21,583 nt of DNA from the UHGV virus genome UHGV-0131581; one strand, written 5' to 3'. Shown piece by piece: positions 1 to 17,542 of this stretch; position 1 is the stretch's first letter, and each line of letters starts with the position of its first letter. A program made the translations under genes and the position numbers. Origin of the DNA: a virus. Below the pieces are notes generated by a model. That model was not told where the DNA came from. It saw only the letters and a list, made by a program, of their open reading frames with translations, and made no database searches.

Positions 1-2
1 CG

Positions 3-2948: not shown

Positions 2949-2968
2949 CTATTTTCTGTAATGACTAG

Positions 2969-2997: not shown

Positions 2998-3104
2998 TAC
3001 TTCATCGATAACGAGAACGGAGTAGAGAAGATGAGTAACTTCCATAACGAACATGTGATGCAGTTCTACCGCAATAATCTGAAAACTAAAGGAGTGTTTG
3101 GAAA

Positions 3105-3254
3105 ATGAAAATCACAGATATCGAGGCATTCGAAGACGCACAACTGATGGCACGTATTGCCGTTAGTAACCTGGGTGGAAACATTCCTGCGGAGTGGTTC
3201 TGGTCCGCAGCGATGAAGGCGCTTAAAGCAGCTTATGCAGGAGAGAAGAAATGA
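3105..3254 (+). CDS. Small hypothetical protein (49 aa)
   Basis: ATG 3105 preceded by AAAGGAG; translates [49 protein letters not shown]; stop overlaps next start (ATGA). Below the ORF-track length cutoff. A 25-codon ORF (3031-3108) upstream is also coupled by ATGA. Confidence 0.45.
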
Positions 3255-3409
3255 GCGAACAAGGCCCAGCAAGCCAGCCATTACGTGTAGGCCTTAAAGT
3301 CAACCACACCCCGTTCCCGACACGCGAGGAACTAATGAAACGTAACAGTTTCCCGGGGCCGGACAAGAACAAGTATCTCAATCGCATGTGGGGAGAGCGT
3401 AAAGAATGA
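3251..3409 (+). CDS. Small hypothetical protein (52 aa)
   Basis: ATG 3251 overlapping the upstream stop; translates [52 protein letters not shown]; stop overlaps ATG 3406 (ATGA). Confidence 0.4.
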   Translation: MSEQGPASQPLRVGLKVNHTPFPTREELMKRNSFPGPDKNKYLNRMWGERKE

Positions 3410-3603
3410 CTGACCGTGAATACGAAAAGATGATGGTAGAGGCCGTTAACGGCGGCGTAGACATCGGTAACGTGATGCACGTCCTGAATACTAAAATCGC
3501 GGTAGCTGAACAAATGGTGGAGTCGCTTTACGAGACACGCCGTGAACTTATCAACCGCTTCAACCTGAACAAAGTCCCGGGCGATGGATATGAAAGCGCC
3601 TGA
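3406..3603 (+). CDS. Small hypothetical protein (65 aa)
   Basis: Track ORF; ATGA coupling with the upstream gene; same strand and spacing as the neighbouring small genes. Confidence 0.5.
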   Translation: MTDREYEKMMVEAVNGGVDIGNVMHVLNTKIAVAEQMVESLYETRRELINRFNLNKVPGDGYESA

Positions 3604-3772
3604 ACCAGTAGTTATCGATGGCGTCCTGTGGAAACCCTACTCGGTTAACCACATCGACGCCGACGGAAAGAGGTTCAGCTTCTACATTTTTGCAATTAGC
3701 CGTGAGCACGCCGCCTGTGTGGTCGACGATATACGAGAAACGGCGTGGCTTGGTGACGAGATAGTGGGGTGA
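3584..3772 (+). CDS. Small hypothetical protein (62 aa)
   Basis: Track ORF overlapping the 3' end of the previous gene; part of the coupled small-gene run. Confidence 0.45.
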   Translation: MDMKAPEPVVIDGVLWKPYSVNHIDADGKRFSFYIFAISREHAACVVDDIRETAWLGDEIVG

Positions 3773-3776
3773 GAGT

Positions 3777-4058
3777 ATGGCACGTACTGTTTCCGCGAGA
3801 TTCACTGATATTGAATCCGCTATAGAAGAAGCCGTTTATTGTAGATTTTGCAACCCCTCCGCGGTACATAACTACGGAGTTATTGTTAAATATGGCAAGT
3901 TTGAGGTTAGAAGGGTGCGCGCCGACCGTCCATACGAGTTTTTATGGACAACAGAAAGCCTCATCCCGCGGTGCCACATTTACACAAGCGGTGTACATAC
4001 TATTTTTGTAGACCTTAACAAGAAAGATATTACCGTCACTAAAGGAGAGACAAATTGA
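3777..4058 (+). CDS. Small hypothetical protein (93 aa)
   Basis: Track ORF; GAGAG just upstream of ATG 3777; stop overlaps next start. Confidence 0.5.
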   Translation: MARTVSARFTDIESAIEEAVYCRFCNPSAVHNYGVIVKYGKFEVRRVRADRPYEFLWTTESLIPRCHIYTSGVHTIFVDLNKKDITVTKGETN

Positions 4059-4291
4059 TTACCAGCATCCCTAAACTGATTGAAAAGTACGGAAATATGT
4101 CGGAGACTTGCCGACAAACCGGTATCTGCGAGATGACGATTGCGAAGTACAGCAAAGACGTTGATTGCGAGCGCCACGTAATTTATAACAACCGTCTGAT
4201 GACGCACGTTAAGACAAGCCCGGTGTTATTCACGCGCCGGGGTATCACTAAAACTGAGCAACGCATTGCTAAAGAGGAGAGCAGGGAATGA
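4055..4291 (+). CDS. Small putative DNA-binding protein (78 aa, HTH-like segment)
   Basis: SETCRQTGICEMTIAKY resembles a helix-turn-helix recognition unit; coupled to both neighbours. Confidence 0.45.
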   Translation: MITSIPKLIEKYGNMSETCRQTGICEMTIAKYSKDVDCERHVIYNNRLMTHVKTSPVLFTRRGITKTEQRIAKEESRE

Positions 4292-4470
4292 TTGAGTTTT
4301 TGAAGGCACTTGATGCCGCGGGCAACCTGGTATTTTGGCTGGCCTTTTTCGTTGTGCTGATAAAACAACCGACTTTGTTTAACAGTCTTCCTGGCCATCT
4401 GTGGTGGCCTATGTTTTTAGGCATGGGGGTAACAGGAGTGGCAGGCGTCCTGTTGTGGTTTTTCAAATGA
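4288..4470 (+). CDS. Small membrane protein (60 aa, two hydrophobic helices)
   Basis: LVFWLAFFVVLI and WWPMFLGMGVTGVAGVLLWFF; GGAGAGCAGGGA upstream of ATG 4288. Confidence 0.5.
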   Translation: MIEFLKALDAAGNLVFWLAFFVVLIKQPTLFNSLPGHLWWPMFLGMGVTGVAGVLLWFFK

Positions 4471-4582
4471 GACTACTAATCATACCAAACGCCTGGGCTA
4501 TTGCCGTAGCTAACGACCACTACGGCGGCGATGGTAAAAGAGCACCTCGACACGGCCTATATAATTGATTGGAGAGCGAGAG

Positions 4583-4798
4583 ATGAAAGATATGGAACCC
4601 TTCAAGTGGAACCGCTCCGGAATACCACAACACGGCGAATACCCGGAACCGTATAAAAAGGTCGACGTGATAACAAGAAGCAAAGGACGAGATAAAAGTA
4701 TTAACTCCGGACAAGCGTACTGGAGCGGGTATAAGTGGCAGGGGCTTGATGGCTTTAAGATAGGATATTCCCGTGTAATACGCTGGATTGAATATTGA
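4583..4798 (+). CDS. Hypothetical protein (71 aa)
   Basis: ATG 4583 preceded by GGAGAG (4571-4576); the track's TTG 4565 start is treated as an over-extension. Confidence 0.45.
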   Translation: MKDMEPFKWNRSGIPQHGEYPEPYKKVDVITRSKGRDKSINSGQAYWSGYKWQGLDGFKIGYSRVIRWIEY

Positions 4799-4801
4799 TA
4801 C

Positions 4802-4825
4802 AAGCCCTCTACGGAGGGCTTTTCT
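4802..4825 (+). terminator. Rho-independent terminator
   Basis: AAGCCCTC (4802-4809), loop TACG, GAGGGCTT (4814-4821), then TTCT. Confidence 0.65.
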
Positions 4826-4879
4826 GTACATCCCGCCCAATCCCCTTATATAATCCATTTAGACGCGTAGGGCGCGTCT
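4825..4879 (+). promoter_or_regulatory. Promoter-like element (TGTACA, 18 nt, TATAAT at 4849-4854) followed by a perfect 7-bp hairpin (4861-4879) upstream of the terminase small subunit gene
   Basis: -10 TATAAT read directly; AGACGCG-TAGGG-CGCGTCT palindrome at 4861-4879. Confidence 0.4.
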
Positions 4880-4919
4880 GGTGCGCTCTGATGGTCAGAC
4901 GCATATGCAAGGGGATTCT

Positions 4920-5465
4920 ATGAAGCTGAAACTTAAGCAGCCATCTCCAGAGGTGGTGCAAGCTGCACATGAAGAAGCTGTTAGCGCAAACCGTCGCCGT
5001 AAACGGCCACGCGGTAAACAGAGCCTTTATCAATCATCCCGTAATTCCGCTGCGTTGTGGGACCCGGACTATTGTGACGAATTGATTCGTTTCTTCGACC
5101 GCACGTCATGGGAACTTGTGCCTACGTCTAAGGGCGACGAACGCCCGCTGATTCAGGATAAGCCACCGTCACTGGCCCGCTTCGCCTTACATATCGGCGT
5201 CACTATCCCGATTATCAAGCTGTGGCTGCGCGAGATTCCCGCATTTGCAGAAGCCTATGAAACGGCGCAGGCACTGGAAGAGGCATACTTCACTGAGACA
5301 GGCGCGGTGGGCATATCCGCTACGTTTGCCGCTGCGAAGCTAGGTCTTGGCAAAGAGAAACCGGTTGAATCCACCGAAGAAACAGCACCGACTGAGATTA
5401 TTTTCAGTGTCGCAGAGCCTGTAGGTAAAATCGTAACAACGAACATGGGCGAGGTAGAGGAATGA
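4920..5465 (+). CDS. Terminase small subunit (putative)
   Basis: Immediately upstream of and ATGA-coupled to the large terminase gene; basic N-terminus and HTH-like PSLARFALHIGVTIPIIKLWLREIPAFAEAYE; AAGGGGA RBS before ATG 4920. Track GTG start 4881 is possible but less likely. Confidence 0.5.
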   Translation: MKLKLKQPSPEVVQAAHEEAVSANRRRKRPRGKQSLYQSSRNSAALWDPDYCDELIRFFDRTSWELVPTSKGDERPLIQDKPPSLARFALHIGVTIPIIKLWLREIPAFAEAYETAQALEEAYFTETGAVGISATFAAAKLGLGKEKPVESTEETAPTEIIFSVAEPVGKIVTTNMGEVEE

Positions 5466-6712
5466 GTATTCAGCTATCCGCCCCGCAGGCACTGTTCCTG
5501 AATTGCGATAACAAATACAAGGCCTATGTCGGTGGCTTCGGCAGCGGCAAGACATTTGTTGGCTGTCTGGACCTGCTTACGTTTATGCTCAAGCACCCCG
5601 GTACGCGCCTGGGCTACTTCGGCCCGACCTATCCAGCTATCCGCGACATCTTCTACCCGACATTCGAGGAGGCGGCGAACCTGCTCGGGCTCGATGTGCT
5701 GGTTAAATCCGGCGACAAAGAAGTCGTGGTTACTCGTGGTAAGACGGTGCTCGGTACGGTTATCTGCCGTTCGATGGATAACCCAGGTTCTATCGTTGGT
5801 TTCAAAATCGCGGCTGCGGTCGTGGATGAACTCGATGTATTGAGTCGTGAGAAAGCTGAGCTGGCATGGAACAAAATTGTTGCCCGTATGCGTCTTGTTA
5901 TTCCTGGCGTAACTAACCACATCTCTGTAACCACGACGCCGGAAGGGTTCAAGTTCGTCTTTGCCAAGTTCAAAGATAACCCGACACCGAGTTACTCAAT
6001 GGTGCAGGCTTCAACACACGAGAATGCGCGATTCCTGCCGCCGGATTACATTAGCTCGCTGACAGAGACTTACCCGGCGCAACTGATTAACGCGTATCTG
6101 AATGGTGAGTTCGTCAACCTGACCTCCGGCAGCGTGTATTACGCATACGACCGCCACAAACATCGCAGCAAAGAGACAATTCAACCGGGCGACACGCTGT
6201 ACATCGGCCAGGACTTCAACGTTACTAAGAACGCCAGCGCCGTATATGTGCAACGTAAAGACGGCTGGCACGCGGTGGCAGAACTGAAAGGACTGTTCGA
6301 TACGCCAGATACTGTGCGCGTAATTACCGAGAAGTGGAAGTCGCAAGGCCACCGCATCGTCGTTTATCCCGACGCCAGCGGCAAGAACCGCAAAACCAAC
6401 TCGGCATCAATCTCCGATATTGCATTACTCCAGCAGGCCGGCTTCGATGTTCGCGCTAAATCCGCCAACCCCCCGGTTAAAGACCGTGTTTTAGCCGTGA
6501 ATACCGCACTGGAAAAAGGTAAGCTGTGGGTTAACGACCACTTATGCCCTGAGATAGCTAAGACGCTGGAGCAGCAGGCATACGACGATAACGGGGAGCC
6601 ATCCAAAGATGGCATCATCGACCATATGGCGGATGCTCTCGGCTATCCTGTAGTTTACGAGATGCCAGTGGTCAAACCAGTAATCAACATCCCGGTGACT
6701 TTCGCACTTTAA
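5462..6712 (+). CDS. Terminase large subunit
   Basis: Walker A-type motif VGGFGSGKTF near the N-terminus; 416 aa; positioned directly before the portal gene. Confidence 0.85.
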   Translation: MSIQLSAPQALFLNCDNKYKAYVGGFGSGKTFVGCLDLLTFMLKHPGTRLGYFGPTYPAIRDIFYPTFEEAANLLGLDVLVKSGDKEVVVTRGKTVLGTVICRSMDNPGSIVGFKIAAAVVDELDVLSREKAELAWNKIVARMRLVIPGVTNHISVTTTPEGFKFVFAKFKDNPTPSYSMVQASTHENARFLPPDYISSLTETYPAQLINAYLNGEFVNLTSGSVYYAYDRHKHRSKETIQPGDTLYIGQDFNVTKNASAVYVQRKDGWHAVAELKGLFDTPDTVRVITEKWKSQGHRIVVYPDASGKNRKTNSASISDIALLQQAGFDVRAKSANPPVKDRVLAVNTALEKGKLWVNDHLCPEIAKTLEQQAYDDNGEPSKDGIIDHMADALGYPVVYEMPVVKPVINIPVTFAL

Positions 6713-6724
6713 GAGGATTATTCA

Positions 6725-8206
6725 ATGTTAACTATGAACGGTCAGAATCAGGGTGTTAAGACAAAACACCGGGAATGGCTGCATCACTTCAATAAATGGC
6801 AGAAGGTACGCCACGCGCTGGAAGGCGACCTTATTCGCTATCTGCGCAACGTCGGGAAGAACGAGCCGGACCAGAAATACGCAGACCAGCGCCAGGAAGA
6901 ATATGAGAACGGCGCTATCTGCTACAACTTCACGAAACGTACCCTGGCTGGGATGGTCGGCAGTGTCATGCGCAAAGACCCTGAACAGATTATTCCTACT
7001 GAAATGGAGTACCTGTTACGCAATGCCGACGGTTCTGGTGTCGGGTTGTGGCAGCACGCGCAGGATACGCTGATGGAGATTGACTCGGTAGGCCGTGGCG
7101 GGTTGCTGGTTGATGCGCCAGAGACCGCCGCGGCAACGGCAGCCGAACAGAACGCTGGATTATTAAACCCGGTCATCGCATTCTATACCGCAGAGAACAT
7201 CATCAACTGGCGACTGACACGCGTAGGTTCAGTGAACCGTGTGACTATGGTCGTGCTGCGTGAGGCATGGGAATACTCAGAACCGGGTGCGGAGTTCGAA
7301 ACCAAGTTTGGCGAGCAATACCGCGTCCTTGACCTGATTGACGGTCGTTATCGCCAGCGAATATATCGTTTCGATGCCGAAGGCGGCGCACAGGATGAAG
7401 TGATCGAAATATTCCCGGAACTCGGAGAACAGTTGCGCGGCAAAATCCCCTTCACGTTTATCGGGGCGAGCAACAACGACGCTACTATTGACGATGCGCC
7501 TTTGCTGCCGTTGGCTGAACTTAATATCGGACATTTCCGCAACAGCGCGGACAATGAGGAGTCCAGCTTCGTTGTAGGCCAACCCACTCTGTTCATCGCC
7601 CCAGGCGAGAACATGAGCATGGAACAGTGGAAAGAAGCCAACCCTCACGGCGTACGCATGGGGTCGCGCTCGGGTCACAACATCGGTTACGGCGGCAATG
7701 CGTTTCTGGTTCAGGCGGAGGAGAACAACCTCGCTAAGCAGAACATGCTGGATAAAGAGAATCAGGCAATCCAGATTGGCGCGCAGCTTATCACCCCGAC
7801 GCAGCAAATCACCGCTGAATCGGCCAGACTGCAACGCGGCGCCGACACGTCTGTTATGGCGACAATCGCTCGTAATGTAAGCATGGCGTATACAGATGCG
7901 TTGCGCTGGGTTGCTGCGATGCTTGGATTGCGTGAAGACACCGAGATTGAGTTCAAACTGAACATGGAGTTCTTCCTGCAACCGATGACCGCGCAGGACA
8001 GAGCGCAGTGGATGGCAGATATTAACGCGGGCCTGTTACCGGCCACCGCTTATTACGCGGCATTGCGCAAGGCCGGTGTAACTGACTGGACAGATGAGGA
8101 CATTCAGAATGCTATTGAGGATGTCCCTTTGCCGTTAGGTGCTGTTACTCAGGTAGCAGGAGAGATTCCGCAGGCGGCGCAGCAACAAGACGCCGCTCAG
8201 CAGTAA
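6725..8206 (+). CDS. Portal protein
   Basis: 493-aa protein directly downstream of the large terminase and upstream of the head-morphogenesis gene; AAGAGGA RBS; acidic Gln-rich C-terminus. Assigned by size and synteny, not motif. Confidence 0.7.
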   Translation: MLTMNGQNQGVKTKHREWLHHFNKWQKVRHALEGDLIRYLRNVGKNEPDQKYADQRQEEYENGAICYNFTKRTLAGMVGSVMRKDPEQIIPTEMEYLLRNADGSGVGLWQHAQDTLMEIDSVGRGGLLVDAPETAAATAAEQNAGLLNPVIAFYTAENIINWRLTRVGSVNRVTMVVLREAWEYSEPGAEFETKFGEQYRVLDLIDGRYRQRIYRFDAEGGAQDEVIEIFPELGEQLRGKIPFTFIGASNNDATIDDAPLLPLAELNIGHFRNSADNEESSFVVGQPTLFIAPGENMSMEQWKEANPHGVRMGSRSGHNIGYGGNAFLVQAEENNLAKQNMLDKENQAIQIGAQLITPTQQITAESARLQRGADTSVMATIARNVSMAYTDALRWVAAMLGLREDTEIEFKLNMEFFLQPMTAQDRAQWMADINAGLLPATAYYAALRKAGVTDWTDEDIQNAIEDVPLPLGAVTQVAGEIPQAAQQQDAAQQ

Positions 8207-8242
8207 GTATGCTTATAGCTCCGAAAGGGGCTTTCTTATAGT

Positions 8243-9319
8243 ATGCTATTAACTTTAGCGCCACAGGGTTTATCTATGAGCTTACTTACATCCCTAATCA
8301 GCCACCAGATATGGCTGCAACGCACCGCATCCGGTGAAGTGAAAGACCTTGCGCCGTTTCTTCAGGAAATGCGGGACGAAATCAAACGGCAGGTGCTGTT
8401 ATTCGGTGACGACGGGCGAAGCACCGCGCGACTAAATAAACTGTTACGCGACCTTGAAGAAGCATTAACAGGACTTACTGGTGACTGGCGGACAAAGCTG
8501 ATAGAAGACCTCAAAGAACTGGCAGCGTACGAGGCTGAGTGGAACGTAAAGACTCTGACCACTAACGTAAATGGGGAATTTGTTACGCCTACTGCCGAGC
8601 AAGTGTGGGCCGCCGCCGAGTTTCAACCTCTGGCGTTGAACGACAAGCCTGTTGACTTCACTAAGCTGATGGACGGCTGGGGTGAAACAGAAGTCGCGCG
8701 CCTTGTAACCGGCGTTAAGATGGGTTTCGTACAAGGTCAAACCACACGGCAGATTGTTAAAAGCGTAGTCGGCGCGGGCGGACTGGCCGACATCTCTGAG
8801 CGCAACGCAGCTACGGTAATACGTACTGCGCTGTCTCACGTGTCCAACGAAGCCCGTAACGAGACGTACCGCCAGAACGACGACATCATCGAGAAGTACG
8901 AGTGGGTGTCAACGCTGGACAGCCGTACCAGTACGATTTGCAGAGCCAGAGACGGAATGACATGGGAAATTGGTAAAGGGCCGATGCCTCCAGCCCATCC
9001 GAATTGTCGGTCGTGCACGGCCCCGGTAATCAGTTCAGAGTTCGACTTCCTCGATAAAGGCGCAAAACGTGCGGCTAAGGGTGCGGACGGCGGTACTCAG
9101 GTAAGCGCGGACACCACTTACTACGAGTTCCTGAAACAACAACCGGCATGGTTTATTGATGAAGCTCTCGGCCCGGTTCGCGGTAAGATTTTCCGCAACA
9201 GCGGTATATCGCCGGAAGAGTTTCGCGTAATATCTGTAGATGGTTTCGGGAATCCGCTGACACTTAAGCAGATGGCGGAACTCGATAAACGTGTTGCTGA
9301 TTATCTGAAAGGGGATTAA
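8243..9319 (+). CDS. Head morphogenesis protein (Mu F / SPP1 gp7-like minor head protein)
   Basis: ATVIRTALSHVSNEARNETYRQ ... WVSTLDSRTSTICRARDGMTW ... PPAHPNCRSCT matches the Mu-F-like domain pattern; position after portal. Start could be ATG 8243 or ATG 8276. Confidence 0.75.
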   Translation: MLLTLAPQGLSMSLLTSLISHQIWLQRTASGEVKDLAPFLQEMRDEIKRQVLLFGDDGRSTARLNKLLRDLEEALTGLTGDWRTKLIEDLKELAAYEAEWNVKTLTTNVNGEFVTPTAEQVWAAAEFQPLALNDKPVDFTKLMDGWGETEVARLVTGVKMGFVQGQTTRQIVKSVVGAGGLADISERNAATVIRTALSHVSNEARNETYRQNDDIIEKYEWVSTLDSRTSTICRARDGMTWEIGKGPMPPAHPNCRSCTAPVISSEFDFLDKGAKRAAKGADGGTQVSADTTYYEFLKQQPAWFIDEALGPVRGKIFRNSGISPEEFRVISVDGFGNPLTLKQMAELDKRVADYLKGD

Positions 9320-9780
9320 TGATGGGCTTTTTCAAAGTAACTGACGTACCGTCGCGTCGCGTAGTCCAGTACGCCCGCGTGTCTGGCTCCGGCGAGAACG
9401 TGGTGTTTATTGAAGACGAAAGTGTACTTGGCACACCGGTAGATGATATGCCGTTTGCGGATAAAACCGGTATTGCGCTACCGGCCGCGGGTATGCTTTA
9501 TGAGATTCCGTATCTGGCGGACGCTGGCGACGTGTATTTCTCTGCGCAACCGCAGGACGCTGAACTGGTAGACGGAAGCGCGGTAATCACGGTTGAAGTT
9601 AAGGCGGGTAAAGCACCGTATGCTCTGACCTGGTACAAAGACGGAAAGGAAGTGGTTAATGCGCCAGAAGAGGCTTTGTCTCTGACGGTTAATGCGGTAG
9701 GTGAATACTTCGTGAAAGTTACTGATGCCGGTGGTGTAGAGGCCGTGAGTAAAGCGGCGAATGTCACTAAGCCAGAATAA
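9319..9780 (+). CDS. Structural protein with C-terminal Ig-like domain
   Basis: YALTWYKDGKEVVN ... GEYFVKVTDAGG resembles an I-set/Big-type Ig fold; ATGA-coupled to the head morphogenesis gene. Confidence 0.5.
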   Translation: MMGFFKVTDVPSRRVVQYARVSGSGENVVFIEDESVLGTPVDDMPFADKTGIALPAAGMLYEIPYLADAGDVYFSAQPQDAELVDGSAVITVEVKAGKAPYALTWYKDGKEVVNAPEEALSLTVNAVGEYFVKVTDAGGVEAVSKAANVTKPE

Positions 9781-9784
9781 TGCG

Positions 9785-9805
9785 AAGCCCCGGAAGGGGC
9801 TTTTT
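9785..9805 (+). terminator. Rho-independent terminator
   Basis: AAGCCCC-GGAA-GGGGCTT followed by TTT. Confidence 0.75.
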
Positions 9806-9842
9806 AGTGCCTGTGATTATTCCAGTTATTCCTCTCAATTGT

Positions 9843-9900
9843 AAATGTTGGAATAAACTATTCGAATAGTTGACTTTTCACTAAAAATGTGCTAAGCTCC
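9843..9900 (+). promoter_or_regulatory. Promoter region with conserved upstream motifs (ATGTTGGAATAA and GAATAGTTGAC) and TTGACT -35-like element
   Basis: TTGACT at 9871-9876; the two motifs recur at 10611-10640 upstream of the scaffold gene. Confidence 0.45.
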
Positions 9901-10078
9901 ACCTGAGCTTGTGAAGTATGAACAAGCGACCGCGGCGCGGGCAGGTAACGGAGCGGGACGTAAGTCCTGAGTGTAGTTACGCTGACGCGTTCGGAAGGGC
10001 CATACTCTATTGCTTGTGTAAAAAGTAACTGGTTTACTGAGATTACGCCGTTTCTATGTTTAAATGATAAGGACTAGC

Positions 10079-10108
10079 GCCCCGCTTTAAGGCGGGGCTT
10101 TACTTATC
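10079..10108 (+). terminator. Terminator- or attenuator-like hairpin upstream of the spanin genes
   Basis: GCCCCGC (10079-10085), 6-nt loop, GCGGGGC (10092-10098), then TTTACTTAT. Confidence 0.4.
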
Positions 10109-10122
10109 GAGAAAGGAGAAAC

Positions 10123-10509
10123 ATGAATCTTAAAGCAACTGTCGTAGCGGGAGCATGTTTCATCATCCTGTTATATGCGCACGGCTACTATCAATACCGC
10201 ATCGGCTGGAACGAAGGCCGGGCGAATCTCGTTTCGCAGCAACAACAGAAAGCGCAGGCTGAGTTAGCAAAGAAAACACAACGGCAGCAGCAGGACGAAT
10301 CGAAGGCCGCAGCCGCTGATAACGAAGGCAAGACGAAATCAGAGGTGATTACCCGTGAAGTCGTTAAGTACATTAAAACGCCTGGTCGCAGCGTGTGCAC
10401 TTTTGACCCTGAGCGCGTGCAGCTCAAGTCCCGAGCCGTCGCGAATGCCAATTCCATCCCCGGATACGACGATGATGCAGTCGCCGTGCAAACTGGCCCC
10501 GCCAAGTAG
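10123..10509 (+). CDS. i-spanin (Rz-like inner-membrane spanin subunit)
   Basis: N-terminal TM helix (VVAGACFIILLYAHGYY), Gln/Ala/Lys-rich coiled-coil region, AAGGAG RBS, and a lipoprotein gene in its +1 frame. Confidence 0.65.
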   Translation: MNLKATVVAGACFIILLYAHGYYQYRIGWNEGRANLVSQQQQKAQAELAKKTQRQQQDESKAAAADNEGKTKSEVITREVVKYIKTPGRSVCTFDPERVQLKSRAVANANSIPGYDDDAVAVQTGPAK

Positions 10510-10618
10510 CGACGCCGATGAGGATTTGGCTATCGACGTTCAGAACGCAGAATGCGTACGGCAACTGAGGCTGAAAGTGTTCATGTTGCAGGATTACGTG
10601 AGGAATATTCTGGAATAG
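10355..10618 (+). CDS. o-spanin (Rz1-like outer-membrane lipoprotein), overlapping the i-spanin gene in the +1 frame
   Basis: MKSLSTLKRLVAACALLTLSAC: signal peptide with lipobox L-S-A-C, followed by a Pro-rich mature region (SSSPEPSRMPIPSPD); extends past the Rz stop (overlapped architecture). Confidence 0.65.
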   Translation: MKSLSTLKRLVAACALLTLSACSSSPEPSRMPIPSPDTTMMQSPCKLAPPSSDADEDLAIDVQNAECVRQLRLKVFMLQDYVRNILE

Positions 10619-10674
10619 TTGCCTTGCATGTTGGAATAATTTATTCTTGACATGTAAATCCGGGTGGCCCGGAT
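10611..10674 (+). promoter_or_regulatory. Second copy of the conserved motif pair plus TTGACA and an 8-bp hairpin, upstream of the scaffold gene
   Basis: GAATAGTTGCC (10613-10623) and ATGTTGGAATAA (10629-10640); TTGACA 10647-10652; AATCCGGG-TGG-CCCGGATT at 10656-10674. Confidence 0.45.
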
Positions 10675-10700
10675 TCCAACGTCCAGGGGACATACTGACT

Positions 10701-11402
10701 ATGAATCGTTTTTTACGTTATCCGTTCCAGGAAGAAGCTGGGGTAGAAGATAAAGCTGGTGGCGGTGACGCGCCGAAAATGTTCACCGCTGAAGAAGTTC
10801 AGGTGCTGATTGAGAAAGAAGTTGCCGGGCTTAAGGCCAATCAGGAAGCATTGCTGGCGGAGAAGAAAGAAGCCGCTCGCAAAGCAAAAGAAGCCGAAGA
10901 AGAACGGCAGCGCGCGCATCAGGAGGCGTTAAAAGCCGCTGGTAAGATGGACGAGTTCGAAAAAACGATTCGTAGCCAGTATGACCCGGTGCTAGCCGAG
11001 AAAGATGGTCGCATCTCCAGAATGGCGGAGCGCATCCTCGGCAGCGAACGTAAAGCGGTGCTAGGCTCTTTCGCGGGCGACTTTATTACCCCGGAAGCGG
11101 TGGACATTCTTGCACCGTTCGTTAGGACTGAGTTTGAAGGCGATGATGTGGTTACTAAGTTTGTTGGTGCAGACGGTAACGTAATCACGACTGACCCTGA
11201 ACAGTTCCGCAAATACCTGCGCGAACACAAAGCGTTTTCGCATTTGATTAAAGCAAATGCAGCTTCCGGCGGCGGGGCTTCCGGTGGCAAAGGCGGCGGG
11301 GCCGCACCAGCGTTTAAAGACATGAGTGAATCGGAGCGTTTGGCTCTGTATAAATCGAACCCTGCCGAATTTGAACGGCAACTTAAAGCCCTGAGGAAAT
11401 AA
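10701..11402 (+). CDS. Scaffolding protein (putative)
   Basis: Acidic, Ala/Glu/Lys-rich coiled-coil protein directly upstream of the major capsid gene; ATG 10701 preferred over the track's TTG 10647. Confidence 0.55.
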   Translation: MNRFLRYPFQEEAGVEDKAGGGDAPKMFTAEEVQVLIEKEVAGLKANQEALLAEKKEAARKAKEAEEERQRAHQEALKAAGKMDEFEKTIRSQYDPVLAEKDGRISRMAERILGSERKAVLGSFAGDFITPEAVDILAPFVRTEFEGDDVVTKFVGADGNVITTDPEQFRKYLREHKAFSHLIKANAASGGGASGGKGGGAAPAFKDMSESERLALYKSNPAEFERQLKALRK

Positions 11403-11404
11403 TA

Positions 11405-12454
11405 ATGGCAATTACCACTATCGGCGATATCGTAACTGGCAACATCCCGGTCCTTGCGTCTTATATGACAGAGGACCCGGTAGAAAAAACCGCGTTCTTC
11501 CAGTCTGGTATTCTTACCCCGACTCCATACGCTGCCGAGATTGCCCGAGGCCCGTCCAACGTCGCTAATATTCCTTTCTGGAAAGCGATTGACACCTCTA
11601 TCGAGCCTAACTACTCGAACGACGTATACCAGGACATCGCTACCCCGCGTAATGTGCAGACCGGTGAGATGATGGCGCGCGTTGCGTACCTGAACGAAGG
11701 CTTTGGCCAGGCAGACCTGACGGTTGAACTGACCAGCGAGAATCCGCTGCAATCCGTGGCTTCTCGTCTTGATAACTTCTGGCAGCGCCAGGCACAACGT
11801 CGTCTTATTGCTACCGCGCTCGGTCTGTACAACGACAACGTAGCCGCTACCGATGCTTACCACGAGCAGAACGACATGGTTATCGACGTGTCTGCTACTC
11901 TGGGCTTTGACGCAGGCGCATTCATCGACGCTACCCAGACTATGGGTGATGCGCTGATGGACAACGGCGGTGAAGTGCTGGGCGCTATTGCGATGCACAG
12001 CTTCGTTTATGCTCAGGCGCGTAAGCAGCAGCTTATCGACTTCATCAAAGACGCCGACAACGACACCCTGTTCGCCACCTACCAGGGTTACCGTGTGATT
12101 GTTGATGACAGCATGACCGTGGTCGGAACTGGCCCGAGCCGCAAGTTCATCTCTATCATCTTCGGCAACGGTGCTATCGGTTACGGTGAAGGCAATCCGT
12201 CTAACCCGCTGGAATACGAGCGTGAAGCGTCTCGTGGTAACGGTGGTGGCGTTGAAACCCTGTGGACCCGCAAGACTTGGTTGCTGCATCCTCTGGGCTA
12301 CAGCTTCACCAGCGCGGTAATCACCGGTAACGGCACCGAGACTACCCCACGCTCTGCCTCCTGGCAGGACCTGGCGAACGCCTCCAACTGGAACCGCGTG
12401 GTTGACCGTAAGCACGTACCGATTGCCTTCCTGGTAACTGGTGTAGGTGCTTAA
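11405..12454 (+). CDS. Major capsid protein
   Basis: 349-aa protein immediately after the scaffold gene and followed by a strong terminator, the usual high-expression capsid arrangement. Assigned by synteny. Confidence 0.7.
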   Translation: MAITTIGDIVTGNIPVLASYMTEDPVEKTAFFQSGILTPTPYAAEIARGPSNVANIPFWKAIDTSIEPNYSNDVYQDIATPRNVQTGEMMARVAYLNEGFGQADLTVELTSENPLQSVASRLDNFWQRQAQRRLIATALGLYNDNVAATDAYHEQNDMVIDVSATLGFDAGAFIDATQTMGDALMDNGGEVLGAIAMHSFVYAQARKQQLIDFIKDADNDTLFATYQGYRVIVDDSMTVVGTGPSRKFISIIFGNGAIGYGEGNPSNPLEYEREASRGNGGGVETLWTRKTWLLHPLGYSFTSAVITGNGTETTPRSASWQDLANASNWNRVVDRKHVPIAFLVTGVGA

Positions 12455-12470
12455 GGTTAAGTTATAATCG

Positions 12471-12494
12471 AGAGGGACTTCGGTCCCTCTTTTC
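12471..12494 (+). terminator. Rho-independent terminator after the major capsid gene
   Basis: AGAGGGAC (12471-12478), loop TTCG, GTCCCTCT (12483-12490), then TTTC. Confidence 0.75.
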
Positions 12495-12513
12495 ATTTAC
12501 TAAGAGGTAAATT

Positions 12514-12768
12514 ATGGCTAAGACCGGAAAGGGCTTACCGCGCAGCCTTGAGAACACCGATTTCAGCAGTGTTGTGCCAGAAGCAACGGCAGAAACCGCT
12601 GGGCTGGTTAAGAAAGGCGCCGCGGTAACTGACATCGGCTCGCAAACTGTTACTGGTGAAGAGGCCGCCGCAGTTGCTACGTCCGCGCAGACTGCGGTTA
12701 ACGCCGTAGGTACTAAACTAAACGCACTTCTGGCGCAACTCCGCGCCGCCGGTGTAATCGAATCATAA
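12514..12768 (+). CDS. Small Ala-rich hypothetical head-associated protein (84 aa)
   Basis: AAGAGG RBS; located between the capsid gene and an Ig-like protein gene. Confidence 0.4.
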   Translation: MAKTGKGLPRSLENTDFSSVVPEATAETAGLVKKGAAVTDIGSQTVTGEEAAAVATSAQTAVNAVGTKLNALLAQLRAAGVIES

Positions 12769-12778
12769 GGGGATTAAA

Positions 12779-13132
12779 ATGGTTGATGTAATCAAACGTC
12801 GTATTACCGGTGTTTCTGACGACTCTCCCGCCGACGGCCAGGTTGAAATCGACATGGCAAATATCGCGCCAGCATCTTTTTCTACCGCGCTTGCTGCTAC
12901 TACCGCTGTTACTGCACCTAACGCGTTAACCCTTACCGTTGTGGCGACCGGTGGGCTGGCGCCTTATTCCTATCAGTGGTTCAAGGATAACAACGCCATC
13001 TCAGGCGCTACAGCGGCTACGTACACCAAAGCCACCACTGTTGCATCTACCGATTCTGGTACGTATAAAGTGGTTGTTCACGATGTGTATGGTAATATTA
13101 TCTCCAGTAGCTCCGTAGTAACTGTATCTTAA
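12779..13132 (+). CDS. Ig-like domain protein (possible capsid decoration)
   Basis: YSYQWFKDNNAISGATAATYTKATTVASTDSGTYKVVVHDVYGN is an Ig-like (I-set/Big-type) pattern; AAGGGGA RBS. Confidence 0.5.
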   Translation: MVDVIKRRITGVSDDSPADGQVEIDMANIAPASFSTALAATTAVTAPNALTLTVVATGGLAPYSYQWFKDNNAISGATAATYTKATTVASTDSGTYKVVVHDVYGNIISSSSVVTVS

Positions 13133-13168
13133 TGCAACGGCCCTTCGGGGCCGTAATAAGGAAAGGTC

Positions 13169-13348
13169 ATGGCAGATAATTACGTAATCCGCGAAAAGTA
13201 CACCCACGTTGATGTTGTCGACGGTCAGGTGATGCCGGTTCGCGGTGTTGTAGAAGCGGGTGAACTGGTTGCGACCCAACCGGACAGCGAAGAAGCGCAC
13301 AACAACGGCGGTGGTGTTAAGCGTCGTCGCCGTAAGTCAGAGGAATAA
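13169..13348 (+). CDS. Small hypothetical protein (59 aa)
   Basis: ATG 13169 preceded by AAGGAAAGG; translates MADNYVIREKYTHVDVVDGQVMPVRGVVEAGELVATQPDSEEAHNNGGGVKRRRRKSEE; below the ORF-track cutoff. Confidence 0.4.
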   Translation: MADNYVIREKYTHVDVVDGQVMPVRGVVEAGELVATQPDSEEAHNNGGGVKRRRRKSEE

Positions 13349-13351
13349 TTT

Positions 13352-13864
13352 ATGCCGCTAATCGTGGAAGATGGGTCAATAGTACCTGGCGCTGACAGTT
13401 ACGTTAGTCTGGCTGACGCCCGCGCGTTAGCGGCTAATTATGGTCTTGAGCTGCCGGAAGACGATACCGCGGCAGGGGTGGCCTTGCGCAACGGCGCTAC
13501 TTATGTCGGGCTTGCAGAACCGCAGATGTGCGGTCGTCGTGTATCCGCAGAGCAGTCTCTTGCGTACCCGCGAACCGGCGTAACGCTAAATGGGTTCCCT
13601 GTAGCAAACAATGTCATTCCGAAGCAGATAATTCTTGCGCAGGTAATCGCCGCCGTTACATATGGCGCAGGCACCGAAGTGCGCGCCAACTCAGACGGTC
13701 GTTCCGTGCAGACGGAGCGTGTAGAGGGTGCAGTAACGGTGACATACTTCAACAACGGCAACAGTGGTGCTACGACCTCGATCACCGCTGCGGACGACGC
13801 TTTACGCCCGCTACTGTGTGGCGGACTTAACAATGGCTTCTCATTTAACGTGTACCGGGGTTAA
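13352..13864 (+). CDS. Putative head-tail connector/adaptor protein
   Basis: 170-aa protein between head and tail genes; AGAGGAA RBS. Function inferred from position only. Confidence 0.35.
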   Translation: MPLIVEDGSIVPGADSYVSLADARALAANYGLELPEDDTAAGVALRNGATYVGLAEPQMCGRRVSAEQSLAYPRTGVTLNGFPVANNVIPKQIILAQVIAAVTYGAGTEVRANSDGRSVQTERVEGAVTVTYFNNGNSGATTSITAADDALRPLLCGGLNNGFSFNVYRG

Positions 13865-13866
13865 AA

Positions 13867-14484
13867 ATGGCGAAGACTAAGACAGAGATGTTTACCCTTA
13901 TAGGTGCTAACCTTCCTGATAACACCACCGGACTTATTACCCCCGCCGCATTGCGTGAAGTAATGACACAGATGGCGGACTCGCCTATTTACGCCACTCC
14001 TGGGGTGAAAGAGGTTGAAGTTCTCCGCGCCGCGTCGACCGTGGTACAAGCGCCTACCGCAGTAGATACAGCATTGCAGTTAACTTTCGGCTCTGCTCAG
14101 GGTAGCGCATCTGACCCGGTAATGATTAATGCCGCCGGGCTGGTTACGTTCAACACCGCGGGTAACTACGCCGTTCGCATCAAGTTACAGGCTGGGCGCA
14201 CGGGTGCTAGCGGCACGTCTATCCTGTTATCGCGTATTCTTCTGAACGGCGCTCAGTACGGCTCGCCAGCAGCTACTAAACTGGTAAGTGCCGACACCAC
14301 AATCCCGATTGAGTCCCGCGTTGTTATTAACCCAACCGCGGGCCAGACGTTTGCCGTTCAGATTATGCGGGATAGTGCTGGAACTAACTTCGGCGGCGTA
14401 TACCCGCAAGCGGCTACGGTAACCGCATGGGGTACCGCCCCGTCAGCACTACTGGTTATTTCGAGACTGGAGGCCGCCGGATGA
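13867..14484 (+). CDS. Hypothetical structural protein (205 aa)
   Basis: Tightly packed in the head-tail joining block; stop overlaps the next start (ATGA). Confidence 0.4.
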   Translation: MAKTKTEMFTLIGANLPDNTTGLITPAALREVMTQMADSPIYATPGVKEVEVLRAASTVVQAPTAVDTALQLTFGSAQGSASDPVMINAAGLVTFNTAGNYAVRIKLQAGRTGASGTSILLSRILLNGAQYGSPAATKLVSADTTIPIESRVVINPTAGQTFAVQIMRDSAGTNFGGVYPQAATVTAWGTAPSALLVISRLEAAG

Positions 14485-14840
14485 GCACCACTTTCAGTAA
14501 ACGTATGCAAGGCGTTGGTACGCGCCTGCTAACCAAATTTGGTAGCACGGTATCTCTGATTCGCGCTGGCTCGAAAGTGTGGGATGAAGTTCTTGGTGAG
14601 TACGTCTGGTCTGCTAATGAAGTGTTGCCGTTGAAGGCGGTTCCGGTTCCGGTAAACGCGGGGCTGATAAACGGTACGACGATTCGGGCGGGCGACATGA
14701 TTGTTAAAGCCGATTGCAGTGTCGTTCCTAAGATGGAAGACAAGGTGCAATTCGGCGGCGAGCAATGGTCTGTCGTAGCTATTGAGAAGAAGATGGTTAA
14801 CGACGACGCCGTGACCTACTTTATTCAGGTGAGAAAATGA
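14481..14840 (+). CDS. Putative head-tail joining protein (120 aa)
   Basis: ATG 14481 with GGAGG RBS; the track's 14427 start is treated as an over-extension; ATGA coupling on both sides. Confidence 0.4.
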   Translation: MSTTFSKRMQGVGTRLLTKFGSTVSLIRAGSKVWDEVLGEYVWSANEVLPLKAVPVPVNAGLINGTTIRAGDMIVKADCSVVPKMEDKVQFGGEQWSVVAIEKKMVNDDAVTYFIQVRK

Positions 14841-15232
14841 GTTTCGCGCTTGATGTCTCTAAGTTCGTGGAAAAGGCGAAGAAGAATCCCGAGAAGGTTA
14901 TGCGCCAGGTGTCTATCAAGCTGTTTTCCGCTATCATAAAGGCGACGCCAGTTGATACTGGTCGTGCGAGAAATAACTGGTTTGCGTCAGGCAGTACCCC
15001 GTCGCAGGAAACTACGACCTACGGCGCACCGCAAGGGACGGCTACTATACAGCGTGTTACTGCGGTTATAAACACCGCTACAGACTGGGGCGAGTTCACA
15101 CTTACCAATAACCTGCCGTATATACAGCGGCTTGAGTATGGCTGGTCGCAACAGGCCCCACAAGGTATGGTAAGGACTAATATATCGCGTTTCCAGCAAC
15201 TCATTAACGAAGAAGCCAACAAGGTGAAATGA
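14837..15232 (+). CDS. Putative neck/tail-completion protein (HK97 gp10-like by position)
   Basis: 131-aa protein in the conserved slot before the tail terminator and major tail genes; ATGA coupling. Confidence 0.35.
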   Translation: MSFALDVSKFVEKAKKNPEKVMRQVSIKLFSAIIKATPVDTGRARNNWFASGSTPSQETTTYGAPQGTATIQRVTAVINTATDWGEFTLTNNLPYIQRLEYGWSQQAPQGMVRTNISRFQQLINEEANKVK

Positions 15233-15645
15233 TGGGCTACTTTGAGGACTTAACAAAAGCGTTTGATGTTCCGCTGGTAGCCTTCGGAAACACCAACGGC
15301 ATCAAGGTTGCGCTTGAAAATATCGACGCGCCGACGTCTACCGATACACCGTATCTGGCGAGTTACATGTTGCTGGCGGATACCGAGCAGGCGGATTTGT
15401 TCTTCACAGAACAACGCGCTGGTGTCTATCAGGTCGACATTAACTACGCATCGGTGAAGGGTAGCGCGCCAATCAATAAAATGGCAGACTTACTTAACAC
15501 GGCGTTTAAAGCAGGTAAGTCATTTTCACGTAACGACATCTGCGCCGAGGTTCAATCGGTTAGCCTGGGGCCGCTGATTGTAGAAAACGGATGGGCCAAA
15601 CGACCATTGTCAATTAACTTTATTGCATTCACCAAGAGGCTGTGA
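15229..15645 (+). CDS. Putative tail terminator protein
   Basis: 138-aa protein immediately upstream of and coupled to the major tail protein gene. Position-based. Confidence 0.35.
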   Translation: MMGYFEDLTKAFDVPLVAFGNTNGIKVALENIDAPTSTDTPYLASYMLLADTEQADLFFTEQRAGVYQVDINYASVKGSAPINKMADLLNTAFKAGKSFSRNDICAEVQSVSLGPLIVENGWAKRPLSINFIAFTKRL

Positions 15646-16814
15646 ATATGGCTACAACTCCTTTTAAGGGCGCGAATACCGCGCAATTCTATGTGGCGGA
15701 AGTGACCCCGGGCGTAACACCTGATAACCCGGTCTGGTCGCCGTTGCGCAACACAGGCGGTGTTCCCGCCGTTACCCGCGACACGCTGGCCTCCAACGAA
15801 CTGGACGGCAGCCGTGAAACTACATCCATCCGCACCGGTAACAGGCAGGTTAGCGGGGAATACGCAATTGAGCTTAGCTCGAAAAGCCAGGACGACTGGC
15901 TGGCTGGCGCTTTAGGCTCTACGTGGCAGTCAGGGGCTTCTCTGTCAGGGTTATCGATTACCGTTGCACCGGCGGGTAAGACGTTCACCCGTGCTGATGG
16001 TAGCTTTATTACCGACGGCGTTGAAGTGGGCGACCTGATTGCGTTTACCGACTTAACGGGCGACAACGCTAAGCCGTTTATCGTTACTGCGGTAGAGGCA
16101 CTGGCGGTAACAGGTGCAGGTATCCAGCACACTCTTACCGCGGAGACTGTCACTACCGCGGCCAAAACTGGAGATAAACTGGAAACCGGTAACCAATGTA
16201 AGACGTTCTCTATTCTCACCTGGTACAAAGGCCAGTGCGGAGGGGCCAGTGTATATACGCTGACCAAAGGCGTTGAAGTTTCGGGTTTTACCGTTGAACA
16301 GGCAGTTAATGCGATGGTAACTGGCAGCTTCCCGTTCATCGGTCGCAGTCAGGAGATTCTCACCGAGCAGCCGTCCGGTTCCGACTTCTCTTCCGTTACG
16401 TTTGGTGACGAGCCGTTCTCCTCGGTTGACGTTTCTGTGTTCGATGGGTCTACGCCGTTGCGTTGCGACAGTCTGACCATCACTAACGACAACAGCGCGT
16501 CCGCACAGTTCGAACTCGGCAACACTAACGTGGCCTTTGTGGAACGTAGCCGCGCAGCTAACACATTCTCTATCTCCGGCAAACTGTACGACATGGCTAT
16601 GATTCAGAAGTTTATCAACGAACAGCAGGTAGAGATTAACTCTATTCTGGCTGGGGTAAACGGTGCTATGTCTTTCAGTTTGAAACGCGCAGAGCTTACG
16701 GCGGTTACGCCAGAGATTGGCGGACCTGAGTCAATCACTCAGTCCATTGAAGGACAGTCCACAGGCAATCAATATCAATCATCTATCGTAATTCAACGTA
16801 TTAGTTACGCGTAA
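15642..16814 (+). CDS. Major tail protein
   Basis: 390-aa Thr/Ser/Gly-rich protein preceding the chaperone and tape-measure genes and followed by a strong terminator. Synteny-based. Confidence 0.6.
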   Translation: MNMATTPFKGANTAQFYVAEVTPGVTPDNPVWSPLRNTGGVPAVTRDTLASNELDGSRETTSIRTGNRQVSGEYAIELSSKSQDDWLAGALGSTWQSGASLSGLSITVAPAGKTFTRADGSFITDGVEVGDLIAFTDLTGDNAKPFIVTAVEALAVTGAGIQHTLTAETVTTAAKTGDKLETGNQCKTFSILTWYKGQCGGASVYTLTKGVEVSGFTVEQAVNAMVTGSFPFIGRSQEILTEQPSGSDFSSVTFGDEPFSSVDVSVFDGSTPLRCDSLTITNDNSASAQFELGNTNVAFVERSRAANTFSISGKLYDMAMIQKFINEQQVEINSILAGVNGAMSFSLKRAELTAVTPEIGGPESITQSIEGQSTGNQYQSSIVIQRISYA

Positions 16815-16816
16815 GG

Positions 16817-16840
16817 AAAAGGCCCCGAAAGGGGCCTTTT
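16817..16840. terminator. Bidirectional rho-independent terminator between convergent genes
   Basis: AAAAGGCCCC-GAAA-GGGGCCTTTT: a GC stem with GNRA-type loop flanked by A-run and T-run, so it can terminate from either direction. Confidence 0.8.
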
Positions 16841-16841
16841 C

Positions 16842-17072
16842 TTACTCATCAATATTGCTTCGGTATTCCCGCAACTTCTCCAGACTTTCAATTGCTTCTG
16901 CTAAGTCGGTTACGGTGTCCTTGTGCCCACGTAAACCCATGCACAATAGCTTCTTCAATGCGTGCTGTAACGCCGGGTCGCGGATGTCGAAGGCGCGCAG
17001 CACATCGTAAACGTCTACGGTCATAGTGCTGCCGTGAGTGTTTGTCATTGTGCGGTTGTATTTTGAAGTCAT
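16842..17072 (-). CDS. Small hypothetical protein (76 aa)
   Basis: Minus-strand ORF ATGA-coupled to the HNH gene; contains DVYDVLRAFDIRDPALQHALKKLL. I do not recognise the family with certainty. Confidence 0.5.
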   Translation of the reverse strand: MTSKYNRTMTNTHGSTMTVDVYDVLRAFDIRDPALQHALKKLLCMGLRGHKDTVTDLAEAIESLEKLREYRSNIDE

Positions 17073-17542
17073 TTTCCGTGCCTCTCAGTAAAGTCTTTCT
17101 TTTCTTTGTAAAAACATTCTGCATATCTCACGGCGTCTTCTTTTTGGTCAAAACGCTTGGCTATCCTATTCCCGTTATATTGAATTTGAACGACCCATTT
17201 ACCGTTATATGTTTTACTAACCCCGGTAACACCAGACGAGTTATCCCTGCGCTTTGCTGCATTTTTGCAGTTTATGTGCCGGTCGCACAGTCGAAGATTC
17301 TCTATACGGTTATCGCTTTTCACACCGTTTATATGGTCAATCTCCTTGCCTTCTGGTATAGCTCCGTTAAACATTTCCCATATAATTCTGTGGGCGAATG
17401 TCATTTTTGATCCTAGTTTAGTTCTTACATATCCGCGGTGGTCAACGTACCCTACTTTACGTCCTTTCGGGTACTTAGGGTTTACGCTGTCCTTAGCGTA
17501 AAGATTCCCGTTTTCGTATTCGTAAACGTTATTCCATGTCAA
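17069..17542 (-). CDS. HNH homing endonuclease with AP2-type DNA-binding domain
   Basis: YVDHRGYVR ... IDHINGVKSDNRIENLRLCDRHINCKN (HNH_3-type core) followed by SGVTGVSKTYNGKWVVQIQYNGNRIAKRFDQKEDAVRYAECFY (AP2-like). Confidence 0.85.
   Translation of the reverse strand: MTWNNVYEYENGNLYAKDSVNPKYPKGRKVGYVDHRGYVRTKLGSKMTFAHRIIWEMFNGAIPEGKEIDHINGVKSDNRIENLRLCDRHINCKNAAKRRDNSSGVTGVSKTYNGKWVVQIQYNGNRIAKRFDQKEDAVRYAECFYKEKKDFTERHGK

Follow-up and report, generated by a model that had tools for sequence, protein, structure and literature searches.

The question raised by this locus is why two short sequence motifs recur in swapped order upstream of two neighbouring gene groups of the virus genome UHGV-0131581, the spanin genes and the scaffold and major-capsid genes. 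The stretch that we analysed, 21,583 nucleotides (nt) long, is referred to below as the window. The original prediction treated the motifs as two separate units that together mark a late-gene regulator binding site common to both promoter regions. Our analysis suggests that they would rather be parts of one cis-regulatory array of GGAATA/TATTCC half-sites, placed at two adjacent sigma-70-type promoters (site 1 with promoter 1, upstream of a leader and the spanins, and site 2 with promoter 2, upstream of the scaffold gene). In its build the shared sequence resembles a protein-binding site: an inverted repeat comes with additional half-sites, its conservation exceeds that of the genes on either side, and the genome has no further copy.

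Motif 1 (ATGTTGGAATAA) is indeed present in both regions, the second copy at 10628–10639 and not, as first given, one position further on at 10629–10640. The full-window search found exactly two copies in 21.6 kb and no more even with one mismatch allowed. Shuffled sequences contained 0.07 copies on average and two copies in 0/100 cases, which bears out the claim that a 12-nt identity is unlikely by chance. Motif 2, GAATAGTTG(A/C)C, was also found where it had been proposed, at 9864–9874 and 10613–10623, and the order of the two motifs is swapped between the sites. Taken alone, motif 2 is only weakly significant (three matches versus a mean of 0.64, with 1/100 shuffles reaching three). A one-mismatch copy, GACTAGTTGAC, at 2963–2973 sits on the -35 element of a promoter-like TTGACT-17-TATATT arrangement. 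The match between the two motif 2 copies extends to 13 nt, GAATAGTTGmCTT, and the true shared block is a 19-mer, ATGTTGGAATAAnnTATTC, identical between the sites at 17 of its 19 positions.

As units neither of the motifs held up. The 12-mer is the left arm, together with a lineage-specific flank, of an inverted repeat of 14–15 base pairs (bp), GGAATA-N3-TATTC(C), which is the conserved unit, the ATGT part of the 12-mer being specific to the genus Kagunavirus. Motif 2, proposed as an independent second motif, combines a half-site with the -35 hexamer of the respective promoter, the extra GAATA half-site lying one base upstream of TTGACT at promoter 1 and of TTGCCT at promoter 2. The swapped order would then reflect the position of the inverted repeat, upstream of the -35 (at about -48) at promoter 1 and downstream of it, over the spacer and the -10, at promoter 2.

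Counted as pentamers (GAATA/TATTC), each site contains five half-sites within about 55–60 bp. At site 1 they are the TATTCC hexamers at 9818–9823 and 9827–9832, the inverted repeat (9850–9863) and the GAATAG at 9864; at site 2 they are supplied by GGAATATTC (10602–10610), GGAATAG (10612–10618) and the inverted repeat (10633–10646). Dinucleotide shuffles of the whole window (n = 500) reached three at most, and local shuffles of either site reached five in 0/5000 cases. The gap of the inverted repeat is fixed at 3 bp and its sequence is variable (AAC, CTT, AAT, ATT) at both sites and in three genera. GAATA-N3-TATTC and the pentamer clusters were found at two sites only in the window, in phage JSSK01 (44.5 kb) and in the Jerseyvirus sidste (42.1 kb). 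A search for a genome-wide late-promoter motif gave no copies beyond these two orthologous sites in the three sequences; the array marks two sites and is therefore not a genome-wide late-promoter set. The idea of a shared late-gene regulator site stands as far as the conserved protein-binding-site anatomy is concerned, but a signal confined to two places in each genome is not a general late one. Dyad symmetry with repeats, conservation beyond the neutral expectation and location at promoters are all found here. We class the element as operator-like, a known type of site that had not been described for Guernseyvirinae.

The conservation of the arrays was followed in related phages. Over 9300–11500 the window shows 93–95% identity to Escherichia phages classed in Kagunavirus (Guernseyvirinae), e.g., JSSK01 and K1ind1, and 80–90% to several hundred records of Salmonella phages, chiefly Jerseyvirus; the source phage is a virulent E. 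coli phage of the genus Kagunavirus. We collected 48 related IMG/VR loci and aligned the distinct sequences among them. At site 2 (10597–10649) the mean identity of 45 distinct sequences is 0.949 and 41 of the 53 columns are invariant; the flanking genes stand at 0.85–0.87. Two invariant blocks, GGAATATTCTGGAATAGTTGCCTT and TGGAATAATTTATTCTTG, are separated by 6–7 freely varying bases, and the latter is kept also in phage SE1 and in Cornellvirus. The overlapping half-sites GGAATATTC are invariant in Kagunavirus and Jerseyvirus and absent in SE1 and Cornellvirus. For site 1, conservation in 45 distinct relatives is 90% or higher in the TATTCC repeats, in a TGTAAAT and in the two arms of the inverted repeat, and when a 316-nt intergenic query is compared with Jerseyvirus by BLAST, only 9816–9878, which is site 1, still aligns. 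The TATTCC direct repeats (9818–9832) are found in Kagunavirus, Jerseyvirus and Cornellvirus, and the inverted repeat of site 1 reads GGAATActtTATTC(C) in Jerseyvirus and is perfect, GGAATAaatTATTCC, in Cornellvirus. The ATGT of motif 1 and the TTGACA of site 2 are not kept in Jerseyvirus, which has AGTAAGTGGAATAA and TTGTTA instead. Both sites are conserved in these three Guernseyvirinae genera, Cornellvirus being represented by FSL SP-038, and the motif is present in phages of Escherichia, Salmonella and Raoultella. Matches to the 19-mer outside Guernseyvirinae were rejected; the other IMG/VR matches appear to be conserved coding stretches of AT-rich contigs and have no half-site array.

The distantly related Klebsiella phage VLCpiS11a (L142) has neither site. 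It carries a repeat of its own, TTGCGAG, present in 14 copies versus 4.9 expected, 12 of the 14 lying in two clusters, one in the early control region (5036–5280) and the other upstream of the spanin gene (35684–35899). The latter cluster is an analogous array in the same position.

Each array lies where a promoter is to be expected, although the exact promoters and their start sites we infer from the hexamers and spacers. Promoter 1 is the sole plus-strand sigma-70 candidate in 9800–9915, with its hexamers at an expected spacing (16–18 nt) and the expected A and T at positions 2 and 6 of the -10, and the start is predicted near G9905/A9906. Its layout is common to three genera (TTGACT/TAGACT/TGGATT, 17 nt, TGnTA(A/C)(G/C)CT). 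The intrinsic terminator that follows the decoration gene would insulate promoter 1 from transcription further upstream; in many relatives two reverse-strand genes and another promoter element stand in its place. For promoter 2 there are two overlapping candidates, (a) and (b), the best two in 10570–10700, and none of their elements varies. The o-spanin and scaffold genes are parted in SE1 and Cornellvirus by a terminator plus a gene on the reverse strand, and the block GGAATAGTTGCCTT...TGGAATAATTTATTCTTGACA remains directly upstream of the scaffold. An independent promoter is therefore required at site 2. Since the block stays with the scaffold gene where the o-spanin gene is separated from it, the second copy of motif 2 cannot be conserved merely through its overlap with the o-spanin stop. 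The view that both regions are regulatory is supported by their conservation and by the need of each place for a promoter of its own. The TTGAC(T/A) elements noted beside the motifs are both present, but only TTGACT (9870–9875) can serve as a -35: the TTGACA (10647–10652) has no -10 at 16–18 nt downstream, is replaced in Jerseyvirus, and is followed 17 bases downstream by CGGATT, which lies within a covarying hairpin. This hairpin (10657–10675) is paired in 100% of cells in 13 distinct sequences, with five pair types at one pair. It is kept, together with TGTAAAT, in the Klebsiella phage that has no GGAATA motif, despite different upstream DNA. Being conserved and covarying in this way, the hairpin is therefore transcribed, and it probably forms the 5' end of the scaffold/capsid messenger RNA (mRNA).

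In the literature found for Kagunavirus, Jerseyvirus, MB78 and Guernseyvirinae generally, no mapped transcription start, regulator, operator or GGAATA motif is reported; the K1B4 time course is at gene level only, and the MB78 record X87092 has no promoter annotated at either site. The features of the locus and of the stretches compared with it are collected in Table 1.

Table 1. Positions of the features discussed (numbering of the window; promoters, transcript ends and RNA structures are predicted).
Feature	Position	Strand	Remarks
Motif 1, copy 1, ATGTTGGAATAA	9845–9856	+	
Motif 1, copy 2, ATGTTGGAATAA	10628–10639	+	
Motif 2, copy 1, GAATAGTTGAC	9864–9874	+	GAATA half-site, G, then -35 hexamer
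Motif 2, copy 2, GAATAGTTGCC	10613–10623	+	GGAATA half-site, G, then -35-like TTGCCT (10619–10624)
Third promoter-like site with motif 2 form	2963–2997	+	GACTAG-TTGACT, 17 nt, TATATT; without GGAATA array
Inverted repeat, site 1, GGAATA-AAC-TATTC	9850–9863	.	core; centred ~48 bp upstream of predicted promoter 1 start
Inverted repeat, site 2, GGAATA-ATT-TATTC	10633–10646	.	covers spacer and -10 of promoter 2
Two direct TATTCC half-sites, 9 bp apart	9818–9823, 9827–9832	-	~75 and ~85 bp upstream of predicted promoter 1 start
Perfect 16-bp palindrome AACTATTCGAATAGTT	9856–9871	.	Kagunavirus only; overlaps start of -35; Jerseyvirus has TTTATTCAAAAAGTAG
GGAATATTC	10602–10610	.	two overlapping half-sites within o-spanin gene end; only where o-spanin abuts site 2
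Promoter 1	9870–9898	+	-35 TTGACT 9870–9875, 17-nt spacer, extended -10 TG-c-TAAGCT 9890–9898
Promoter 2, candidate (a)	TTGCCT 10619–10624, 17 nt, TATTCT 10642–10647	+	start near 10654–10656
Promoter 2, candidate (b), overlapping (a)	10632–10640	+	extended -10 TG-g-AATAAT; start near 10647–10649
TTGACA	10647–10652	+	between -10 and predicted start of promoter 2
Hairpin AAUCCGGG-UGG-CCCGGAUU	10657–10675	+	predicted 5' end of scaffold/capsid mRNA
Leader RNA, ~200 nt	9905–10108	+	5' hairpin 9907–9927, three-helix core 9929–9998, 3' hairpin 10066–10108
Intrinsic terminator after Hoc-like decoration gene	9785–9805	+	AAGCCCC-GGAA-GGGGCTT + TTT, read from sequence
Spanin genes	i-spanin 10123–10509; o-spanin 10355–10618	+	overlapping; o-spanin frame carries lipobox LSAC
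Scaffold gene	10701–11402	+	first in scaffold + major-capsid operon
PHIRE dyad copy TGAATAGTACCCTATTATATT	19096–19116		between GTTACA and TATATT

We favour a mechanism in which a sequence-specific, probably dimeric protein binds both arrays and thereby couples promoters 1 and 2. That one dimeric DNA-binding protein occupies both arrays is, in our judgement, about evenly balanced. Both binding and the direction of regulation we infer from the layout. Repression would be predicted at promoter 2, because the array overlaps the spacer and the -10, and occupancy there should hinder RNA polymerase; at promoter 1, occupancy at about -48 and at the TATTCC half-sites near -75/-85 could result in either activation or cooperative occlusion. 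The proposal is supported by the invariance of the TATTCC repeats near -75/-85 and of the spacer bases TGGAATAAT, neither of which is needed for sigma-70 contacts. Several observations weigh against it. The element is placed differently relative to the two promoters; SE1 keeps site 2 with no site 1; in a few Kagunaviruses the left arm of site 1 contains substitutions (e.g., TAGAATAA and TGTAATAA); and TGGAATAAT is itself a good extended -10, so that part of the invariance of site 2 could be due to promoter function alone. Two points concern the protein candidates discussed below. At -4/-3, where the sites of Fis and NinH show a pyrimidine-purine step, the step in the repeat is purine-pyrimidine; and since nearly all members of the clade have NinH-like genes, little can be read from their occurring together with the motif.

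The most serious alternative dispenses with a dedicated regulator. The conserved bases would be contacts of the host RNA polymerase (the extended -10 TGGAATAAT, the -35s and UP-like AT-rich DNA), and the promoter would have been duplicated or gene-converted. TGGAAT, 18 nt, TG-g-AATAAT is in fact the top-scoring sigma-70 candidate at site 2, motif 2 includes the -35 hexamer in both promoters and in the third one at 2969, and Kagunavirus alone shares the extra ATGTT flank, as would be expected after recent homogenisation. The minus strand of site 1 (9816–9845) also reads TTTACA, 18 nt, TG-g-AATAAT, a match of 10/12 directed leftward, antisense to the decoration gene, and one of several such sigma-70-like matches in a scan of 1–20000. 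This minus-strand promoter was rejected, since precisely the relatives with reverse genes in need of transcription have lost its -10 (TGGAATACG). No plus-strand promoter at site 1 uses the inverted repeat, yet the repeat and the TATTCC hexamers are conserved in three genera, and sigma-70 elements do not show dyad symmetry around a fixed gap. On balance we consider a purely promoter-based origin of the shared sequence rather unlikely.

A host nucleoid protein (Fis, IHF or Lrp) might also bind or bend the AT-rich dyads and tune both promoters to the growth state with no phage factor. Escherichia, Salmonella and Raoultella hosts are expected to share Fis, IHF and Lrp, and the motif is kept across phages of all three. 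The perfect form of the repeat, GGAATA-N3-TATTCC, resembles the sites described for Fis and its mimic NinH: it is a 15-bp dyad with the G-N13-C outline, a terminal G and C and an AT-rich centre (PMC7166090). The G at -7 and the C at +7 are present at site 1 in Cornellvirus and sidste (GGAATAnnnTATTCC) and half present in the window; most copies of the repeat carry one terminal G or C only. The pyrimidine-purine steps of Fis sites at -4/-3 and +3/+4 are reversed here, the repeat having A-T at both. Moreover, strict sequence invariance is unusual for the degenerate sites of nucleoid proteins, and the Klebsiella relative, also an enterobacterial phage, has swapped the array for an unrelated repeat. 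Control by a nucleoid protein alone thus seems improbable.

If a dimeric protein does occupy the arrays, the regulator candidates are a phage NinH-like Fis mimic, an HTH_17 protein and host Fis. A NinH-family protein of 78 codons is encoded at 4055–4291 of the window (Pfam E = 1.7e-7); the gene lies among small genes upstream of the terminase and is annotated as 'transcriptional regulator' in some relatives. The NinH of phage lambda is a dimeric Fis mimic preferring palindromic G-N13-C sites (PMC7166090). Unlike the sites here, those of lambda NinH have a preferred G or C at position -1. Both Kagunavirus and Jerseyvirus carry NinH-like and HTH_17 genes, neither of which turned up in the Klebsiella phage that has no motif; a search for the regulator by phylogenetic profiling gave a weak shortlist only.

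That the repeats are junctions flanking the leader and spanin cassette, kept for recombinational exchange or left as insertion scars, is very improbable: the two sites do flank a cassette of ~780 bp, the recombinants L035 and L036 join a Kagunavirus-type site 1 and leader to Jerseyvirus-type spanins and site 2, and foreign genes are inserted right beside both sites, yet blocks of 14–19 bp in permuted order would recombine poorly, direct repeats would tend to delete the spanins, which are kept in every genome examined, and the dyad symmetry and extra half-sites are left unexplained.

The arrangement may be compared with several known systems. The OR and OL operators of lambda are inverted-repeat repressor/activator sites that overlap promoter hexamers, one protein repressing one promoter and helping another. 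As in that textbook case, the half-site arrays consist of short dyad sites, several per control region, located at the -35 and -10 and more conserved than their surroundings. They differ in belonging to the late (head and lysis) region of a virulent phage, in being present at two loci per genome and in mixing inverted with direct half-sites; the binding protein here is a candidate only. The ARG boxes (GAAT-N4-ATTC, versus N5 here) do not fit, nor do the RcsAB box, the GGTATA repeats of NanR, the TTGC-N6-TTGC of lambda CII or the TyrR boxes agree in spacing or sequence.

A 'phage promoter' consensus for Kagunavirus, tgAATAGTa-ccTATTat-T, has been found with PHIRE (PMC9825357), and the GGAATA-N3-TATTC element is not reported in that paper. 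The PHIRE consensus is also dyad-symmetric and promoter-associated and shares the heptamer GAATAGT with motif 2; in JSSK01, 9–10 of the 11 copies of GAATAGT are at promoter elements. Its geometry is different, AATAG-N4-CTATT, with the dyad located between the -35 and the -10 of sigma-70-like promoters in about seven copies in JSSK01 and one in the window. The dyad was not detected in a Jerseyvirus genome, none of the four GAATAGT copies there being part of one. Many relatives have a PHIRE dyad immediately upstream of site 1, accompanied by two reverse-strand genes that are absent from this phage.

About 200 nt separate promoter 1 from the start codon of the spanins and contain no conserved open reading frame (ORF). 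This leader appears to be a structured RNA and is previously undescribed; it is a more unusual item than the operator-like element. The core (9929–9998) takes the same three-helix fold in 15 sequence variants when each is folded singly and unconstrained. In a covariance-model alignment of 14 distinct sequences, 91.6% of cells are paired over 22 pairs, and nine pairs, with 41 cells in total, changed on both sides, a value reached by 0/500 shuffles; slid controls were 27–41% paired. This alignment is fitted to the model, and the unconstrained single-sequence folds agree with it; it was used instead of MAFFT with RNAalifold, which misaligned two leader helices across genera. The leader stretch is 95–99% identical in 164 records, including the Salmonella phages FSL SP-101 and LSPA1, and the core occurs in one copy per genome, only in contigs of Guernseyvirinae size. 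The leader is far more conserved than the neighbouring genes. Against Rfam there was no match at the gathering score, and a permissive search gave chance-level hits only (E at least 2); ARAGORN detected no tRNA or transfer-messenger RNA (tmRNA) in the leader. A 36-codon ORF in it (9918–10028) was rejected, its ATG lying in a segment that Jerseyvirus lacks and its changes following compensatory pairing. The 'tRNA-Ser' annotated in phage wast and predicted in L043 is on the other strand, over the decoration gene end and the terminator, and was taken as spurious.

The 3' hairpin of the leader (10066–10108) directly precedes the ribosome-binding site of the spanins. A terminator scan listed the hairpin at 10079–10098, the tail of which, UUUACUUAUC, pairs with an upstream GAUAAG. 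The lower stem GAUAAG/CUUAUC sequesters the would-be U tract and, aligned by eye, reads as covarying with UAUACG/CGUAUA in Jerseyvirus, the U tract there being no longer than UU. Because of this sequestration and covariation the 3' hairpin does not appear to be a plain terminator. At its other end the predicted transcript of promoter 1 starts with the hairpin 9907–9927 (z = -3.5).

Stem-loops of the ompA type at the 5' terminus stabilise bacterial mRNAs. Both transcripts predicted here resemble them in beginning with a hairpin about 1–3 nt from the predicted start (9907–9927 and 10657–10675), the second of which covaries; the starts themselves are predicted from the sequence.

Taken together, the arrays and the leader may constitute an undescribed late switch of Guernseyvirinae. 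One phage protein, e.g., the NinH-like one, would bind both arrays, lower promoter 2 and act on promoter 1, and the leader would be a new RNA family that gates the spanins or acts in trans, timing head production against the last step of lysis. As a whole this scheme is speculative and we regard it as improbable. An operator common to the promoters of the spanin leader and of the scaffold/capsid genes would nevertheless offer a cheaply testable handle on late-gene control and lysis timing, and a covarying leader that has no Rfam match could be a new cis-regulatory or processed phage RNA. Several hundred of the records in the phage collection that we searched belong to Guernseyvirinae (Kagunavirus and Jerseyvirus), which many of the publications retrieved present as candidates for therapeutic or biocontrol use.

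The gene neighbourhood agrees with that of K1ind1, in which head morphogenesis and Hoc-like decoration genes are followed by two overlapping Rz-like spanins, the scaffold and the major head protein. The ORFs of the window match this order, and the original labels 'spanin operon' and 'scaffold/capsid operon' were right, the o-spanin being recognised also by its lipobox. The loci L035 and L036 (Salmonella phages of the FSL SP-101 and LSPA1 types) are mosaic: site 1 and the leader are of the Kagunavirus type, ~96% identical to the window, and the spanins (74–76% identity to the window) and site 2 are of the Jerseyvirus type, which puts a recombination junction between leader and spanins.

The beginning of the window, about 1–1053 (also noted as 1–1193), is not phage-like and has no match to Kagunavirus genomes. 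It contains the 3' end of an SmpB-like ORF (3–131, Pfam E = 3.6e-11), a near-consensus promoter (115–144) and a 336-codon ORF for a truncated SecY, residues 82–259 of which match the first half only of the SecY profile (E = 1.3e-41). A tmRNA was looked for because of the SmpB fragment, and ARAGORN gave no signal of one. This part of the window is either a chimeric assembly or captured bacterial DNA. Finally, in the MB78 record X87092 (L120) ribosomal frameshifting (p26/p28) is annotated at 2252–2258 in the homologue of the scaffold gene, a spot that would correspond to about 11310 of the window, inside the scaffold gene.

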